A stretch of DNA of 64,000 nucleotides, from the sequence record PZ445523.1, one strand, 5' to 3'. A model generated the notes under the pieces. The model saw nothing but the letters and a program-made list of their open reading frames with translations. It was not told the DNA's origin and did no database searches. The position numbers and the translations under genes are program-made. The DNA comes from a phage. Below, piece after piece: positions 3,761 to 61,966 of the stretch (the stretch's first letter is position 1; the number at the start of each line of letters is the position of its first letter).

Positions 3761-5938
3761 TTAGGCCGCAAGGGCCTTCATAGTTTTAGCGATTTGAGAA
3801 ACTTCATCATCACTTAAAGAGTTGCGATAACCGATGAAGTCGGAAACAATACGGAATTTCTTGGTAAACTCAGCAACCATTTTATCACTGTTTTTTGAAG
3901 CATTATTTGATAATACATCAAAAAGATTAGTTACTGTCCAGATGTCATGACCGATGGTATCTTTTCCACCATTAAAATATACACCCTGTAATGAACTAAC
4001 CATATTAGCGAGTCGTGTATATTCTTCAGAAACTTCATCTACACTGAAATACTTCATCATAAAATCTAACTCAGGATACTTGATAATTTTATCAATATAT
4101 CGTTTAGCTGAACTTGAATAACCTACATACTTATCATAATCTACATCATCAAAAGCATCTACATATAAATCACGCAAAGCTTCAAAAATACATTGGCACT
4201 GACCGAGTTCTTTTACCTTTTTCTGTAAAAGCGGACGAATAACATAAAATTCATTAATGCCAATAAGATTAGCCATACGAATCAAAATATTCATAGATGG
4301 ATGACAAAGAGATGTAGTACCATCCATAGAGAAAATATCAGAACGATGCATATACGCTACATAACCAGTAATTTCATCTGCTTCTGACGTAAGTGTAAAT
4401 AGTTCCTCTTTTTCCCATCGCCCGTCTTTAATTTCAAACTTAAATGCTGTAGCAGCTTTAGGACGAGGAGCTTTACTTTTAACTACCTTTGGAATATAGC
4501 TTTTAACTAAAGCTTCAATTTCTGACAAATAATGAATGTTAACTTCATCACTTTCAAACATCGCCATAATGTCAGGAAGCAAATCAATCTGCGATTCTAC
4601 TTCTGGATTAATAAACAGAAGGCGTTCGTTGTGATGAATATTCAAAGTGTTATTAAATTCACTATCATCTAACGCATGCGCTAATCCACGGACAATATTA
4701 ACACGATTTTTAATATTATCAATAACGATATTAATTTTTGTTGTATTAATACCAAACAGACGATAACTTGATGCAACGGCTGAAGTTTCATGACTTTGCT
4801 TAATGCGCTTCAGTCGAGGGTCAAGATTTACTTCATACACAACTCCTGCATTGCATAACTTACTGTCAGGTTCAAACATGCTCTGCATCTTTTTATATGA
4901 CAAATTTTTAGTCGTGAATTTGACTGAATTACTAATCATATAATCTCGAGCAGAATATCCCATCTTCATCAATTCACGATATGTGTGACGAGGAGATGTA
5001 GATTCTTTAAATCGTTTTACATCTTCATTAAATGCTTTCTCACTGAGTTCTTTAACTCGTTCAATGATATTTTTACGAGTACGATCATCTAGTGAAAGAG
5101 CTTCGCGTGATGGAGCAATATCAAGTGAACCCATTGGAAACTTAATGTAATTCACTTCATTGCGGATGCTTAGCCAGTTACGGTCTTTAATAACACCATC
5201 GATAGGATAAACAATACCGCCATAGATAGCATATAATCCACCACGATCAGGCCAGTATCTTTCTGGATTTACGCCGTAATAATCATCAAAATCCGGAAAA
5301 TAATCAATTTCGCGGTCAAGACCATTAATGATAGCCAAATCTTTGAACGGTCGCATGATATAAGAAACTTCATAAGCAAAGTTTCTAAAGTCTTTTTCTT
5401 CAACTGGAACTACGATTTCAATACCAGTTTTATCATCTGGACCCATTTCTTTTACGAATGTAGGTTTAATCTGTGGACCATCACCATCCATGTAAGCTAC
5501 ATAACCACGAATTTCACCTTTATGATACGAAGTAATACTAAACGTATCAGTATAACTAAACGGAGATTTAGAACCTAAACCAAATCCGCCAATAAAGTCA
5601 TTAGATTCAGCCTTAGATGAACTGAAATATGAATTATACAGACCAGGAGAATTATCATCACCTTGAATATCAAAATCACTCATACCCGGACCAAAATCTC
5701 GACAAACAAATCGCGGGTCTAATCGTCCTGGAACTTGAATGATAAATTTTTCAGGATTTCCATTGAGAGCATGGGCATCAATCATGTTGGTAATCAATTC
5801 ACGGACTACTGCGCGAATCTTGTTTGTATACAAATCAGATGACAGAATTTTAAATACTTTAGGAGATGCTGTGATGCTAAATGCTTTTGATTTAGAACCA
5901 TTACCAAGAATTGTTTCTTTTTCAGTAGTGATAATCAT
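3761..5938 (-). CDS. rIIA: rIIA rapid-lysis protein, 725 aa (HATPase-like N-terminus)
   Basis: 725-aa ORF recognised as T4 rIIA by sequence and length. Confidence 0.9.
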
Positions 5939-24635: not shown

Positions 24636-25809
24636 TAAATTCTTCCATATCACTTAACTGTTCGAGGTCAGTTTCTAAATCAGCAGCTGATTTACTTTTA
24701 CTTTCTGGAGATTTAAATTTTTCAACCTTTGAGTTAATCAATTCATCGACTTCAGCCTCAACAATTTCATTACTATCAATAGCACCTAACTGATAAGCAC
24801 GTTTAATAGCATCTCGGAATGGTTGATGCTTAAATAAAGGACCCCAGAATGTAGTGCAGTTGGTATCTTTTGCACGCCAAGATTTTTCTTCGCGAATCAT
24901 CTCGCCGGTTTCTTCATCAAGAAATTCACGAGCATACCAACCATTCTTAGGTTTTACCACGAATCCTAATTCTAGAGCCATATCTAACAATCCAGAATAA
25001 GGATCGATACCACCGTCAAATTTAACATCAATAAAGAATTTACTTTTTTCTTTAACGGTACGAGATTTTTCTACATTTAGAACAAATTGATACCCCTGAA
25101 GATCAGAACCATCTTTAATCTGGCGCTTACCGATAATGAATACAGTATCAGCCGAATACATTACGCCTGTACCACCTGTCATCACGGTTTTACTAAACAT
25201 TTCAATGGTTTCAATTGTATGGTTAACCGCAACACATGGAATATTTTTAATGCTAAAATAAGGAGTAACAATACGGAATAATGACTTCAGTGATTTAGCA
25301 CGAGTCATATCTGCCACAGATTTTTCATTCAAGGCATCTTCCGTTTCTTTCTTAGAAGCCATATTACCAATTGAGTCGATGAATACAATAACCTTTTCAC
25401 CACGCTCAATAGCTTCAAGCTGATTCACCATATCAATTTTCAGTTGTTCAACTGACTGGATTGGCGTATGAATTACTCGTTCTGGGTCAACTCCCATGGA
25501 TCGCAAATAAGCTGGAGTAATACCAAATTCGCTATCATAGAATAGACAAACTGCATCAGGATATTTGTTCAAATACGCTGCAACCATAGTCAAAGACATA
25601 TTTGATTTAAAGTGTTTAGAAGGCCCTGCGAAAATAGTTAAACCAGACTGCATACCGCCATCAATCGCGCCAGAAATAGCAATATTAAGCATTGGGATTT
25701 TTGTACGGATTACATCCTTTTCATTAAAGAATTTAGATGTAGTCAGTTCAGCAGTCATTTTAGAAGTGGAAGCTTTAATCAAACGGGATTTTAAATCTGC
25801 AATAGACAT
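24628..25809 (-). CDS. uvsX: UvsX recombinase (RecA-like), 393 aa
   Basis: Recognised as T4 UvsX; Walker A GPSKHFKS. Confidence 0.9.
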   Translation of the reverse strand: MSIADLKSRLIKASTSKMTAELTTSKFFNEKDVIRTKIPMLNIAISGAIDGGMQSGLTIFAGPSKHFKSNMSLTMVAAYLNKYPDAVCLFYDSEFGITPAYLRSMGVDPERVIHTPIQSVEQLKIDMVNQLEAIERGEKVIVFIDSIGNMASKKETEDALNEKSVADMTRAKSLKSLFRIVTPYFSIKNIPCVAVNHTIETIEMFSKTVMTGGTGVMYSADTVFIIGKRQIKDGSDLQGYQFVLNVEKSRTVKEKSKFFIDVKFDGGIDPYSGLLDMALELGFVVKPKNGWYAREFLDEETGEMIREEKSWRAKDTNCTTFWGPLFKHQPFRDAIKRAYQLGAIDSNEIVEAEVDELINSKVEKFKSPESKSKSAADLETDLEQLSDMEEFNE

Positions 25810-41349: not shown

Positions 41350-41358
41350 AATTATACC

Positions 41359-41679
41359 TTAGTAATTTTCAGGTCTGCAAATTTTTTTCTTGCGTTGATT
41401 TTTCATGCGACGAATAGTTTTATCGGAAATTTCATGCTTTTGATAAGCTTTAGATTCTACACCAAAAGCTTTAACATCAAATTCTGACAAGATATATTGA
41501 ACCAACAATTCACGGATAGTGTTGCGTCCAATCTTCTGATCATTCTGTTTCATCGTCTGATGAAGCTCTTTTTCCCATTTATCCAAAATTTGAGGAGTTA
41601 CAATATCGCCTTTTTCTAGTAAAGAAACTACTTTATCATATGCGTAAGAATTGATGGCGTTTTTAATTTGAATAGTCAT
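41359..41679 (-). CDS. hypothetical protein (106 aa)
   Basis: ORF track. Confidence 0.45.
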   Translation of the reverse strand: MTIQIKNAINSYAYDKVVSLLEKGDIVTPQILDKWEKELHQTMKQNDQKIGRNTIRELLVQYILSEFDVKAFGVESKAYQKHEISDKTIRRMKNQRKKKICRPENY

Positions 41680-41932: not shown

Positions 41933-42072
41933 TTAAATTTTCCAGTTACCGTTTTCATCAATAAATTCAATCCAGTCATTTACTGACCACTTAGTTGTAT
42001 CACCTTTTTGGAGTAACATTTAAAGTGTATAACCCCTGCTTAAAAAGCATTCGTTTGATATTCATATTTTCC

Positions 42073-47044: not shown

Positions 47045-47365
47045 TTATAGCGTAATCCATTCTCGTACTGTCTGAATTACTACACGTTCTCGAAGCTCAA
47101 CCAGTTCAACGGTAGGAACTGCATAATACCAGTCAGAATGGTAAGAACCTGAGCGAGATTCATTTACAGAAACATATACGTGGTGTTTTGGGCTAAAGTA
47201 AATTACTCGACGATATTGGCATTTGCCTTGTTGAGTCCATTCTTCGGATTCAATCTGAATAAGATAGTCGGAAAAATCGAAATCATAGTTTTCCGAAAAT
47301 GCATCATGGTCTTCGATGATTTCACTCAGAACTGCATCAACATCTAATTTATTTTCAATAGTCAT
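47045..47365 (-). CDS. hypothetical acidic protein (106 aa)
   Basis: ORF track. Confidence 0.45.
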   Translation of the reverse strand: MTIENKLDVDAVLSEIIEDHDAFSENYDFDFSDYLIQIESEEWTQQGKCQYRRVIYFSPKHHVYVSVNESRSGSYHSDWYYAVPTVELVELRERVVIQTVREWITL

Positions 47366-57237: not shown

Positions 57238-57759
57238 TTATCCTTTCATTGAAGGCGTAACGGTTGTTAAATACTTAATCATAGCTTCAGCTTCTGATTT
57301 TGATAATGAAATTTCTCCATTGTTTTGACGAATAGAAATAAAATCCGGATGACGGTCACCACCAGCTTTTAAAACACACATATAAGTATCAACTTCGCCT
57401 TCAATATTTGAAATGATTGAAGCAGTTCCACATGAATGTGGTTTTTGATAAATCAATACAGCTTTTCTTCCGCCATTTGACTGTTCATATGCTTTTAACA
57501 CATCAAGCAAATCAGTTCTTTTATCAATAGCTAAAATGTTATTTTCATCTTCAATGTTAAATCCTTCGGATACTTCATAAAGCGTTACCCATAAATCACC
57601 AATGTCAATAACAGCATTTACGTTTCCACGGCTTTCAAGAGCATGACAAATTTTCTTGATTTCGTCATAACTCATTTTAATAATATCATCTCCTTGAATA
57701 AGAAAGATGTCATTTTTAAATTCAACACGAATTAAACCACTTCCACTTGAAATAAACAT
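57238..57759 (-). CDS. hypothetical protein (173 aa), paralog of next gene
   Basis: C-terminal ...EAEAMIKYLTTVTPSMKG resembles ...EAIALKTYLDSVIPTMISK. Confidence 0.5.
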   Translation of the reverse strand: MFISSGSGLIRVEFKNDIFLIQGDDIIKMSYDEIKKICHALESRGNVNAVIDIGDLWVTLYEVSEGFNIEDENNILAIDKRTDLLDVLKAYEQSNGGRKAVLIYQKPHSCGTASIISNIEGEVDTYMCVLKAGGDRHPDFISIRQNNGEISLSKSEAEAMIKYLTTVTPSMKG

Positions 57760-57765
57760 ATTTCC

Positions 57766-58320
57766 TCACTTTGAAATCATAGTTGGAATGACAGAATCAA
57801 GATAAGTCTTTAGCGCAATAGCTTCGTCTTTGGTAAATGTGACAATATGTGCTCGAGAATCATCAATTTGGCGAACAAGTACGACATCGCCATCTTCATA
57901 AGAAGTCTTGACATCCAAAGTCGTAGTATAATTTGCAGCTACTGGATTAATAATGCTAGCACCGCGATCTTTAGCCCATTGAAGTTTAGACTTTTCGGGT
58001 GTTTCGACTGTTTCAGATTCCAAGAATTCTTTCACCTTGGCAACGAATGTTGCCCAATTGTTGATAGAAAGACACGCAAGTTCAGTTTCAATATTACCAC
58101 CGTGAGTGCCACGATAAAAACGAACTTGGAGGTCGTCTGTAATATTAGTTACACAGGTAACTCCTGAGGGAGCATAAGATAAAATCGCAGGCAATTCCAT
58201 AGGAAGAATAGTAATACTATCGTCTTCCTGCGTCAGAACGTATATATTACCACGTTTTTCGATAACCAGGTCACCGAACAAATCAGTTGTTTCAATTACA
58301 GCTTTCATATTATTTACCAA
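57766..58320 (-). CDS. hypothetical protein (184 aa), paralog of previous gene
   Basis: ORF track; shared C-terminal motif. Confidence 0.5.
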   Translation of the reverse strand: MVNNMKAVIETTDLFGDLVIEKRGNIYVLTQEDDSITILPMELPAILSYAPSGVTCVTNITDDLQVRFYRGTHGGNIETELACLSINNWATFVAKVKEFLESETVETPEKSKLQWAKDRGASIINPVAANYTTTLDVKTSYEDGDVVLVRQIDDSRAHIVTFTKDEAIALKTYLDSVIPTMISK

Positions 58321-58495
58321 TTAAAGTTTCAATATAAGAATCAAGATTTACTTTAGCTTCTTCCATAAGAGTTTTGTATTTAATCTTGTTGGCATGTCCG
58401 GAGAAAGCTGATTCATCAATAATTGTTGATGTATGAACAGCTTTACTATACGTCTCAATTAATTCTCTTAATTTAAAAGCCTGCTCACTTGTCAT
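58310..58495 (-). CDS. small helical protein, ~60-aa paralog family (61 aa)
   Basis: MTSEQAFKLRELIETYSKAV...; shares pattern with five neighbours. Confidence 0.5.
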   Translation of the reverse strand: MTSEQAFKLRELIETYSKAVHTSTIIDESAFSGHANKIKYKTLMEEAKVNLDSYIETLIGK

Positions 58496-58626
58496 TACAT
58501 ACTCCTCTGAATCATATCAATAATGTTGTTCACCAGATTATAAGTAAACATTGGGTAATTATATTGAATCATCACATACACAACAAACAAAACTTTCATT
58601 CTCTTCTCCTTGGCAGTTGACAAGAT

Positions 58627-58656
58627 TACTATACCATAACCTTGCCAACTTGTAAA
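58627..58656 (-). promoter_or_regulatory. T4-type early promoter
   Basis: actata-N18-gtaaac. Confidence 0.5.
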
Positions 58657-58658
58657 CC

Positions 58659-58834
58659 ATTAAATGACGTTTTCGATAAAATTCTGAAGCTTTGTATGAG
58701 CATCAACCATGATTTTCATTTCTTCTTTGGCGAAAGCTATACCTCTTTCACGAGAAGAATATTCATAGTCAGAAACTGCATTAGCATATTCTTCAATTAG
58801 CTTTCATTAAAAACATCTGCTTTTCAGTTTTCAT
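58659..58834 (-). pseudogene. frameshifted member of the ~60-aa family (two +1 shifts)
   Basis: Frame 1 gives MKTEKQMFLMKAN*, +1 frame continues IEEYANAVSDYEYSSRERGIAFAKEEMKIMVDAHTKLQN, and a further +1 after a T5 run gives FIENVI*; joined product aligns with 58310..58495. Confidence 0.45.
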
Positions 58835-59018
58835 TATTCCACCTAATCATTTCAAGATATTGAACTAACTTAGCTTTGGATTTATCCAAATCCTTTTTAG
58901 CTGCTTCTATACCGTCGTATGAATATCCTTCACAATGCTCAACTGCTAATTGATATGAATCTATTTCAATATCATGCGCTAATTTAATGATTTTTTCAAA
59001 CTGTTCGTGTGTTAGCAT
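58824..59018 (-). CDS. small helical protein, ~60-aa family (64 aa)
   Basis: ORF track; MLTHEQFEKIIKLAHD... Confidence 0.5.
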   Translation of the reverse strand: MLTHEQFEKIIKLAHDIEIDSYQLAVEHCEGYSYDGIEAAKKDLDKSKAKLVQYLEMIRWNNEN

Positions 59019-59020
59019 AC

Positions 59021-59203
59021 TTACACTCTCGTATTATGATCGATAATTTCATCAAGAAACATATCTAACGCTTCTAAAGCATTATCAACTTTAGCTTCAA
59101 ATTCTTCAATACCTGATAAGGCAAAGTTAACGCGTTCCTCATCTGCTTTACGAATTAAAGCTACCAATTCCTTAATTTTATCCGCTTGTTCAATACTAAT
59201 CAT
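59021..59203 (-). CDS. small helical protein, ~60-aa family (60 aa from ATG at 59203)
   Basis: ORF track trimmed; [17 protein letters not shown]... Confidence 0.45.
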   Translation of the reverse strand: MISIEQADKIKELVALIRKADEERVNFALSGIEEFEAKVDNALEALDMFLDEIIDHNTRV

Positions 59204-59391
59204 TATTCCACCACATATGAAAGAGAGAATATTGCACACGCCATGTGAGTTGCAGCTTCATCACACATATTATAACGTTTCTTAAGAAGTTCTACAAGTT
59301 CTTCACTAGTGACTTCATCCATGTCGACGAAAAAATCACCATTAATGATGACGTAGATATTTCCTTCTTGATTGAGTGCTTCAATTTTCAT
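59203..59391 (-). CDS. hypothetical protein (62 aa from ATG at 59391)
   Basis: ORF track trimmed; GAGGAG SD; early promoter upstream. Confidence 0.45.
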
Positions 59392-59419
59392 GATGTTCTC
59401 CTCTTTATCCGATGGTTGT

Positions 59420-59449
59420 ATAGTACCACAGCTCAAACGGAAAGTAAAC
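59420..59449 (-). promoter_or_regulatory. T4-type early promoter
   Basis: atagta-N18-gtaaac. Confidence 0.6.
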
Positions 59450-59463
59450 CGGTAAAATGAAAA

Positions 59464-59481
59464 AAGTCTCCCGAAGGAGAC
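59464..59481 (-). terminator. intrinsic terminator after rI.-1
   Basis: agtctcc-cgaa-ggagact hairpin and U-rich tail. Confidence 0.6.
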
Positions 59482-59486
59482 TAATG

Positions 59487-59873
59487 TTATTCGAGGGAAA
59501 GAAGATACTTACTCTGGTAAAACATTCCAGTAATATCATCTATCGTGCTTTGGATGGCTGGAGGCATTTCTTTATAAATGCTGTTAGATTGGTCTAGTAT
59601 GCGATCAATCATTTTAATTGTGTCGGTAGGAAGTTTACTGGCATCTGGAATTGAAGGTGTGTATTTTCGACCAGAATACCCCAAATATTGCTCACCAAAT
59701 TTATCAATCAAATCTGGCAACTCGGAGAAAATAAAATCGTATGCTTTGTGTCTAGCATAACTTTTAGTTTCAAAATGTGCAGAATGAAAATAAGCTTGTG
59801 CAGCCATTAATAAACCTAAGTATTCATCTGCCTTTGAAGGTTTTCCACTTTGTGAAAAGTCGCTGAATTTCAT
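59487..59873 (-). CDS. rI.-1-like protein (128 aa)
   Basis: Position immediately downstream of rI; ATGA overlap. Confidence 0.55.
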
Positions 59874-60163
59874 TCAGTCTCCAATTTAATGTTCATAATT
59901 CTAGCGTATGATTGTGCCATCTCCGCGCCTCGTTCTATACATTCAAAATCAGAAGAGCACGGGTCATTTTTATAGGTCGTTCTCATAAAACTATAGAATT
60001 GTTCAGACGATTCTACGCTTTTATTTTCAAAAAGCATATAAACGTGCCTAATACCAGATTCCATAAATTTATCAAAATGAGGATCGGCATTCGCTTCAAT
60101 CGATGGAGATAAAACAAATGACAATCCTAGCATGGCAAATAGTGCCGTTGCTTTTAAGGCCAT
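59870..60163 (-). CDS. rI: lysis inhibition regulator RI (97 aa, signal-anchor)
   Basis: MALKATALFAMLGLSFVLSP... recognised as T4 RI. Confidence 0.85.
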   Translation of the reverse strand: MALKATALFAMLGLSFVLSPSIEANADPHFDKFMESGIRHVYMLFENKSVESSEQFYSFMRTTYKNDPCSSDFECIERGAEMAQSYARIMNIKLETE

Positions 60164-60175
60164 AAAGGCCTCCTA

Positions 60176-60388
60176 TCATTTTTGTCCTGTATTTACTTTA
60201 TGCCGATGCACGGCCTTAACTTTATCAAGGTATTTTTCAAAATTTCGCAATCTAGTATAGTCTGCCGGAGATTGGTTGAGTGATACTTCTCGACGCAAAG
60301 CTGAAATGATATTTCCAACTTCCCTACGAATTTCATCTAATTGAAGCACAGTAAGATTGCGAAGTTGCTTTTCAGTTAATTGTAGCAT
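60176..60388 (-). CDS. rI.1-like protein (70 aa)
   Basis: ORF track; late promoter upstream. Confidence 0.5.
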
Positions 60389-60403
60389 ATATACCCCTTT
60401 AGT

Positions 60404-60411
60404 TAGATAAA
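60404..60411 (-). promoter_or_regulatory. late promoter TATAAATA upstream of rI.1/rI
   Basis: tatttata on plus strand. Confidence 0.5.
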
Positions 60412-60430
60412 CCTATTTATAACTTTTGCA

Positions 60431-61012
60431 CTAACCGAGCTTTTTAGTTAATTCATTCCAATGTTTTCTACACAAAGAAACATAAATTTCATCACCAATA
60501 CAGATTTGATTACCTTCTTTAACTGATGTTCCATCTTCCATTAATCGAGCTGTCATAATCGCTTTTTTACCACAATGACAAACTGCCTTTAGTTCAATAA
60601 GTTTATCTGCAATCGCTAAAAGTTCTTTAGAACCTTCAAACAATTTTCCAGCGAAATCAGTCCTTAATCCATAAGCCATAACAGGAACATTATATGTATC
60701 AACAATTCGGCTCAATTGATGCACCTGTTCAGTTTTTAAAAATTGGGCTTCATCTACAAATATGCAATGAATATCTTTTTGTGCTTCAGCCCATTTATAG
60801 AACTCGAAAATATCCATATCATCCGTAATAATATTCGCTTCCTGCTTAATTCCAATGCGAGAAACGACTTCACAGACAGAATCGCGAGTATCAATAGCAG
60901 GCTTAAGAACTAATACGCCCATTCCGCGTTCTTTATAATTGTGTGCAGCAGTCAAAAGAGAAGCAGATTTTCCAGCATTCATTGCTGCATAAGTAAAAAT
61001 TAAACTCGCCAT
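60431..61012 (-). CDS. tk: thymidine kinase, 193 aa
   Basis: P-loop AAMNAGKS; C-terminal zinc ribbon CHCG...CRKH; 193 aa as in T4. Confidence 0.9.
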   Translation of the reverse strand: MASLIFTYAAMNAGKSASLLTAAHNYKERGMGVLVLKPAIDTRDSVCEVVSRIGIKQEANIITDDMDIFEFYKWAEAQKDIHCIFVDEAQFLKTEQVHQLSRIVDTYNVPVMAYGLRTDFAGKLFEGSKELLAIADKLIELKAVCHCGKKAIMTARLMEDGTSVKEGNQICIGDEIYVSLCRKHWNELTKKLG

Positions 61013-61013
61013 T

Positions 61014-61202
61014 TTAGTCCTTAGTTAAATTTTCTAAATATGTTTCTAAATCATTTTCAGCTTTATCGATAGATTTTACTAATTCGTAATATGTTTCGGC
61101 ATCTCCATATTCAGAAGATATTTCAAAAGACAAATCCTTTTCTAAACTAATAATTTCACCAACTAAAAATAATATTTCGTTCTTTTGTTCGCGAGTAATC
61201 AT
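61014..61202 (-). CDS. small acidic helical protein, ~60-aa family (62 aa)
   Basis: MITREQKNEILFLVGEII... Confidence 0.5.
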   Translation of the reverse strand: MITREQKNEILFLVGEIISLEKDLSFEISSEYGDAETYYELVKSIDKAENDLETYLENLTKD

Positions 61203-61384
61203 AAAGAATTTATATAATCAATGAGTTCTTGCTCTTTATCGTCGAAATCTTTACACAGTTCTTCGTATTCGTCAGTATTAAAAGGACCGCATTCATTACA
61301 AACTTTTTCCAATTCACTATTTTTATCCATAACTTCGTGGATAAGAGAAAAGAGTTTGTCTTTTTGTTCTTTGCTTAGGCTCAT
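61199..61384 (-). CDS. small acidic helical protein, ~60-aa family (61 aa)
   Basis: MSLSKEQKDKLFSLIHEV...; ATGA overlaps. Confidence 0.5.
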   Translation of the reverse strand: MSLSKEQKDKLFSLIHEVMDKNSELEKVCNECGPFNTDEYEELCKDFDDKEQELIDYINSL

Positions 61385-61554
61385 ATATTAATTTCCAGAA
61401 GTTTTAAAATAATTCGCTTTTGCTTAAATATTTCCACAGTTAAATGATCAGTATCTTTTTGACCAATTCCAATGGCAAAACCTTTATTAACAGCGAGTTC
61501 AATTAAATTATCAAGTTCACGTAACACTTCGTATTGTAACTCAGAACTATTCAT
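61381..61554 (-). CDS. small hypothetical protein (57 aa)
   Basis: Manual translation MNSSELQYEVLRELDNLIELAVNKG...; ATGA overlaps with both neighbours. Confidence 0.4.
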   Translation of the reverse strand: MNSSELQYEVLRELDNLIELAVNKGFAIGIGQKDTDHLTVEIFKQKRIILKLLEINI

Positions 61555-61763
61555 TTTGGTTTACCTTCTTTAACGAAATCAGGATAAGGATAAAATCCTG
61601 AATAAAATCCTTCACCTTTATGATTGATGCATCCTTTATTAGAACAATAGCACCAATAATCGAAATCACAAGCCATTTCATCATTGCATAAAGCAAAAAC
61701 AACCGGCCACTTACACTTTTCACAGTGGGCATTTTTAAGAATACTAGTTTGGCTCATAACCAT
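61551..61763 (-). CDS. Cys-rich small protein (70 aa)
   Basis: ORF track; CEKCKW...CNDEMAC...CYCSNKGC. Confidence 0.45.
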   Translation of the reverse strand: MVMSQTSILKNAHCEKCKWPVVFALCNDEMACDFDYWCYCSNKGCINHKGEGFYSGFYPYPDFVKEGKPK

Positions 61764-61966
61764 GTCACCTTTAAGCAGTATTCTTCTACATGTTGTTTAC
61801 GACCTTTCTTATCAATAAAGGTATATTCAACGAATGTTCCAATGTAGTCTTTATCTACATCATGTGGACTATTAATTGGACATTTAGTACGGCAAATGCG
61901 TTCCCATTGACGAATAATTACTGCCTTATTCTTTGGGTCATACGGATGTGGATAATGTATATTCAT
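61754..61966 (-). CDS. hypothetical protein (about 70 aa)
   Basis: ORF track trimmed to ATG at 61966. Confidence 0.4.
   Translation of the reverse strand: MNIHYPHPYDPKNKAVIIRQWERICRTKCPINSPHDVDKDYIGTFVEYTFIDKKGRKQHVEEYCLKVTWL

Follow-up and report, generated by a model that had tools for sequence, protein, structure and literature searches.

The locus at 58660-58834 (minus strand) of the phage record PZ445523.1 raises the question of why one member of a family of small proteins is encoded out of frame among intact relatives. The stretch of DNA analysed, hereafter the window, comprises 64,000 nucleotides. The initial annotation had described several acidic, helical proteins of ~60 aa between 58310 and 61384, one of them split over three frames, and had offered a recent pseudogene, a sequencing error or slippage-dependent expression as explanations.

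The window belongs to a Tequatrovirus (T4-like) genome with the early genes on the minus strand. The region 58000-61800 matched 556 phage records, with a best identity of 97.7%, and its gene order (mobD.1, mobD.2, mobD.2a, mobD.3, mobD.4, mobD.5, rI.-1, rI, rI.1, tk, tk.1, tk.2) is the same as in T4, JK23 and AR1. The locus lies in the syntenic arrangement mobD.3, mobD.2a, promoter-like site, mobD.2, and the matching gene is annotated mobD.2a in ime09, T6, RB51 and RB14. On the basis of this synteny and of high DNA identity, we assign the locus 58660-58834 as the ortholog of T4 mobD.2a. T4 MobD.2a and the 57-aa Tequatrovirus orthologs (PF24219, PHROG 2758) likewise lie between mobD.3 and mobD.2, and their DNA is 95-99% identical to that of the window copy. 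The lineage of the window is 2-4% divergent from its nearest database relatives, and no match to its exact MobD.1 and Tk proteins was found in a collection of 15 billion proteins. The exact 173-aa protein encoded at 57238-57759 (minus strand) has its only other record in phage RB27, which, beside the unrecorded MobD.1 and Tk, points to a mosaic make-up of the lineage.

The end of mobD.3 and the start of mobD.2a share 11 nt, a coupling typical of T4. Directly 3' of the mobD.2a stop codon and before mobD.2 (58498-58599, minus strand), a promoter-like site of the sigma-70/T4-early type (TTTACA, a 17-nt spacer, TG and TATAGT) was located at 58628-58656 (minus strand) by consensus match only, with 10 of 12 positions; it is the best such match in the region, and a promoter is annotated at the corresponding site in the fPS-2 record. 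If this candidate promoter is functional, a premature stop in mobD.2a should have little polar effect on the downstream genes. Further upstream, between rI.-1 and mobD.5, lies a G+C-rich hairpin, AGTCTCCCGAAGGAGACT (59465-59482), which is bidirectional and has its T tract on the minus strand; it is likely an intrinsic terminator dividing two early transcription units.

The family of ~60-aa proteins is already catalogued as Pfam DUF7438 (PF24219; model length of 57 positions, gathering cut-off of 25 bits) and is not new. Of the family, for which at least six members had been proposed, six were recovered with this profile between 58310 and 61384 on the minus strand, five of them intact, with scores of 49.6-69.4 bits, and one as a repaired reading. 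They are a 61-aa paralog missing from T4 (58310-58495; 57.8 bits; phrog_4859), the frameshifted mobD.2a ortholog (58660-58834), the mobD.3 ortholog of 64 aa (58824-59018; 64.4 bits; named from T4 and AR1 annotation), the mobD.4 ortholog of 60 aa with the ATG at 59203 as start (59021-59203; 49.6 bits; T4 annotation), the tk.1 ortholog of 62 aa, whose sequence is exactly that of T4 Tk.1 (61014-61202; 55.6 bits), and the tk.2 ortholog of 61 aa (61199-61384; 69.4 bits). The repaired 57-aa MobD.2a matched positions 1-56 of the 57 of the profile with 56.2 bits (E = 4.6e-15) and phrog_2758 with 6e-35. In PHROGs, the members are assigned to phrog_653, 2758 and 4859, with cross-hits among these groups. 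The M-x-S/T-x-E-Q start and the Y/F-I/L-E-x-(I/L) end noted earlier are visible in the family alignment. The pairwise identity among the six paralogs is 16-29%, and mobD.2a, mobD.3, mobD.4, tk.1, tk.2 and the extra 61-aa gene are old paralogs, arranged in two clusters. No further member was detected when an HMM built from the six was run against the 506 ORFs of the window. The tk.3-like ORF (61381-61554) and rI.1 (60176-60388) were considered as members and rejected by the PF24219 profile test.

The description of these proteins as acidic holds in part, the pI values ranging from 4.2 to 6.1, that is from acidic to near neutral. Their helical character agrees with the AlphaFold2 prediction for an intact MobD.2a ortholog, an antiparallel two-helix hairpin (helices 4-30 and 32-55) with a pLDDT of 95.5. 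A Foldseek search of this model against the PDB returned only generic helical hairpins (best E = 0.96) and no functional lead; the predicted fold resembles Rop-like and DHp-like antiparallel hairpins at a level below significance, and such a likeness to a generic fold is uninformative on function. The family is small, with 27 representatives at E <= 1e-3, mostly of 57-67 aa, in a profile search of 1.84 billion cluster representatives, and zero annotated relatives among these 27 matches; a literature search found no paper naming DUF7438. Copy number differs between phages: T4 lacks the 61-aa copy adjoining mobD.1, and AR1 and a sewage contig (L010) lack tk.1. In RefSeq/PGAP, the mobD.4-type proteins are named [quoted passage not shown], apparently by confusion with the name of the T4 gene mobD, and the 61-aa paralog (58310-58495) is called "helicase loader" in some RefSeq records via phrog_4859. 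Both labels appear unfounded for two-helix proteins of 60 aa.

We located the lesion by aligning the window copy with T4, AR1, JK23 and eight loci from metagenomes or IMG/VR; the alignments with T4, AR1, four IMG/VR loci and several loci of ENA, Logan or NCBI agreed. In its relatives, mobD.2a has 57 codons and a stop codon, 174 nt in all, against 175 nt in the window, and the sole length difference is a single base: the relatives' AA is AAA in the window (58802-58804, minus strand), ATGAAGCT becoming ATGAAAGCT. The relatives read ATG-AAG-CTA where the window reads ATG-AAA-GCT, with AAA at 58804-58802. The alignments, with at least 10 loci, thus show one extra base and two frames, and not the two +1 shifts over three frames of the initial annotation. 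Of the two shift sites that it had placed, at an AA dinucleotide and at a T5 run, the second can be dismissed: the T5 run (58809-58813, minus strand) does not differ in any relative, and in the original frame it supplies the F-L of MKTEKQMFLMK.

Translation in the original frame starts at the ATG 58834-58832 and gives a 5' piece of 13 codons, MKTEKQMFLMKAN (58793-58834, minus strand), before a premature TGA at codon 14 (58795-58793). The 3' piece (58660-58803, minus strand) holds 47 undamaged codons in the +1 frame (KLIEEYANAV...NFIENVI), reads KLIEEYANAVSDYEYSSRERGIAFAKEEMKIMVDAHTKLQNFIENVI and ends at the original TAA; this stop codon occupies 58662-58660, so the start of the locus, previously given as 58659, was off by one. 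The DUF7438 domain therefore lacks an uninterrupted ORF in the window and is distributed over the 13-codon stub and the 47 codons in the +1 frame, where the intact orthologs differ by lacking the one extra base in codon 11. No further stop or indel was found in the 3' piece relative to the orthologs, and thus no secondary decay in 47 codons. If one A is dropped, the locus again encodes 57 aa, with 93-98% identity to the orthologs (~490 phage records); its JK23 counterpart, shorter by one base, is a single uninterrupted frame for a 57-aa protein. The broken frame is thus fully explained, because one extra base suffices, and the derivation of the locus from an intact family member, as first proposed, is borne out by this one-base repair. 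Relative to the intact orthologs, the gene carries the disabling lesion expected of a pseudogene, namely the single-base insertion. In one related IMG/VR locus (L005, IMGVR_UViG_3300045988_128797), codon 11 is the synonymous AAA, giving ATG-AAA-CTA and not ATG-AAG-CTA; with this allele, ATGAAACTA, the window sequence ATG-AAA-G-CTA is readable as carrying either an extra G or an extra A.

The frequency of the allele was then measured with a 71-nt query centred on the lesion. It was identical in 0 of 484 matching phage records, the best of which matched 70/71 with a one-base gap, and the context is otherwise identical to that of many relatives. The exact broken allele had no match in IMG/VR and none in the JGI metagenomes, where an intact-allele control gave 5 matches; neither the broken nor the intact allele was found in GTDB genomes, so that the absence from this set carries no information. 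The extra A is also missing from three ENA contigs that encode exactly the MobD.3 of the window and are the nearest kin found; one contig with this exact MobD.3, L010, carries a different lesion. The gene itself is widely intact, since, by tblastn, at least 80% of the 57-aa protein is found at a single place in 641 of the 643 phage records that match. Among the orthologs compared, 8 variable codons were synonymous and 3 non-synonymous, which argues that mobD.2a is normally maintained.

Broken copies of mobD.2a were nevertheless found elsewhere. In an ENA contig of 169 kb that occurs in 2 samples (L013, 401-514), codon 38 is changed from GAA to the nonsense codon TAA; the sewage contig L010 has a 7-nt tandem duplication of TGAAAAC directly after the start codon (5560-5600); and phage ESh16 (ON528726.1; L015, 401-604) has lost 1 nt from the A4 run in ATGAAAATC. 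The nonsense change and the 7-nt duplication are not possible homopolymer miscalls, so real knockouts of mobD.2a do occur. T4 is viable after deletion of the whole nrdC.11-mobD.3 fragment, mobD.2a included (PMC9825161); mobD.2a is dispensable in T4.

These observations make a genuine, evolutionarily young loss-of-function allele the reading that we prefer, with a probability of about 0.5. The extra base would then be present in the phage DNA and not in the record alone. A one-base insertion of the replication-slippage type in the short A run of codon 11 would have shifted the frame, translation would end after the 13 residues of the stub, and the 57-aa two-helix DUF7438 protein would not be made. 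The loss would be tolerated by the phage, as mobD.2a is dispensable and five diverged paralogs, which may buffer it, remain, and the downstream promoter-like site would shield the following genes from polarity. Insertions of +1 that lengthen A runs are expected from replication slippage, as at the classical hot spots of rII in the T-even phages. The window lesion is alike in lengthening an A run by one base; the rII hot spots are however longer, the mobD.2a run having grown only from 2 to 3 bases. The independent lesions in L013, L010 and ESh16 support a real allele, and the 2-4% divergence of the lineage gives time for private mutations. Against a real allele stand the privacy of the insertion, the strong conservation of the gene and the precedents for errors in records, at mobD.2a itself and at gp43 of AR1.

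The strongest rival is a sequencing or assembly error, in which the gene would be unbroken in the phage DNA, at 174 nt, and the additional A would be a feature of the deposited consensus alone; we give this explanation a substantial chance, somewhat short of even. The allele is private to a single record across phage records, IMG/VR and the JGI metagenomes, and the rest of mobD.2a is perfectly preserved, as an error would leave it; with no secondary decay in 47 codons, a fresh mutation and an artefact look alike. The lengthening of A2 to A3 speaks on the other side, a two-A run appearing unusually short, and hence a poor substrate, for a homopolymer miscall, and real mobD.2a knockouts are known elsewhere.

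A precedent for error is provided by T4. Its reference genome holds a 38-aa "MobD.2a hypothetical protein" (NP_813809, NC_000866; T4 58049-58165, corresponding to L002 2050-2166), the truncation of which is due to a 1-nt deletion at codon 34, with GCTTTCGCC in relatives and GCTTTTCC in the reference. This deletion is confined to U76612, AF158101 and NC_000866 and is lacking in 12 re-sequenced T4-type records, among them T4T, KJ477684-6, MT984581, OL9647xx, OZ2090xx, RB55 and RB59, in which mobD.2a is intact; an old sequencing error is therefore the most likely source of the deletion. The same gene is thus affected, likewise by a single-base frameshift in one lineage of records, although the T4 reference lesion is a deletion at codon 34 and that of the window an insertion at codon 11.

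Other frame-breaking differences in the window bear on the same choice. They were screened with the AR1 ORFs and a gapped alignment of the whole window, and three private or near-private frame-breaking indels were found, at 58802, 42005 and 41382. The second is an A4 to A5 insertion (coding strand) in a 55.4-like gene (41936-42065, minus strand; T5 at 42005-42009 on the plus strand), present in 0 of 316 related records, which cuts a 43-aa protein (MNIKRMLFKQGLYTLNVTPKGDTTKWSVNDWIEFIDENGNWKI in e11/2) to 21 aa. The third, an A6 to A7 insertion at the 3' end of a 55.2-like gene (41355-41391, minus strand; T7 at 41382-41388 on the plus strand), is common only to phage Paracelsus (MZ501096.1), that is to 1 of 373 records; it replaces the last nine residues of the protein, FADLKITKA, by ICRPENY, and the former C-terminal residues can still be read in a different frame. 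A T5 to T6 difference at 47365 is a common polymorphism, seen in 25 records. Apparent window frameshifts in gp43 and probably segE were rejected as lesions of AR1 itself: the window gp43 has the expected C-terminus ASLDFLFG, and AR1 (L003, AP011113.1, ~25151-25185) carries one C too many close to the end of gene 43, giving ASVRLPVWLIE, which is probably an error in the AR1 record.

Each of the three indels adds one base to an A run, always on the same strand, and secondary decay was seen in none. As two further insertions in small ORFs share direction and strand with that of mobD.2a, the three could reflect a systematic miscall pattern, in favour of an error. Their distribution points the other way. 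The ORFs of up to 110 aa make up 20% of the window and the larger ones 73%, and all three indels fall within the 20% class; random errors should fall mostly in the large genes, and the screen with AR1 as comparator found no frameshift in any large or essential gene. This favours real mutations filtered by selection, unless the depositors corrected known genes by hand, in which case the argument would be void.

A further explanation goes beyond the young allele that we prefer, by taking the repeated independent inactivation of mobD.2a as a sign of selection for its loss, and not of neutral decay or error, for instance where a host defence is triggered by the DUF7438 protein. In a weaker variant, low-level +1 slippage at AAA-G would make the allele leaky and not null. 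We regard this as improbable.

Slippage-dependent expression, the third of the possibilities first put forward, has fared worse than the other two, which both remain live. The full-length protein would be made either by ribosomes that shift by +1 in a programmed manner, at AAA-G or AAU-UGA, or through transcriptional slippage. A +1 shift anywhere from the AAA (58804-58802) to the TGA (58795-58793) would restore the ancestral frame, the downstream frame is fully open, and re-pairing of tRNA-Lys from AAA to AAG is chemically possible. Lysine codons are known as slippery. The shifted arrangement was however found in 0 of 484 relatives, and 641 of 643 records encode the protein contiguously. AAA is followed in the A site by GCU, a common codon and neither rare nor a stop, re-pairing of the P-site tRNA in the +1 frame is impossible at AAU-UGA, and inspection of 58793-58834 revealed no Shine-Dalgarno-like or GGAGG-like element upstream. 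Programmed +1 frameshifting in prfB (RF2) is alike in that a +1 shift near an in-frame UGA is needed for the full-length product, but mobD.2a differs in having no conserved shifted arrangement, no re-pairing codon of the CUU-UGA type and no upstream Shine-Dalgarno stimulator. Efficient transcriptional slippage takes place at homopolymeric A or T runs of ~8-9 or more, and the A3 and T5 runs are far below this length; removal of a T from T5 leads to a stop (ATG TTT TAA), and no change in its length ever restores the frame. We thus hold slippage-dependent expression of the full-length protein to be very unlikely. A tryptic peptide beginning LIEEYANAVSDYEYSSR would signal translation of the 3' piece. 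That the broken arrangement is ancestral or a chance resemblance, the locus never having been an intact family member in this lineage, is scarcely credible, as it is syntenic between mobD.3 and mobD.2, its DNA is 97-99% identical to intact orthologs and a single-base difference restores a 57-aa protein above the Pfam threshold.

For the annotation of the T4-like phages, the true MobD.2a product is a protein of 57 aa, and the 38-aa entry of the T4 reference needs correction. The lesion in the window, a single-base break of a dispensable accessory gene in a well-sampled genus, perhaps absent from the DNA, carries little biological weight. If it is real, one of six diverged DUF7438 paralogs has been removed from this phage. 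If selection for loss, improbable as we consider it, were true, the multi-copy DUF7438 family would serve as an arsenal of early proteins for interaction with the host, prone to turnover.
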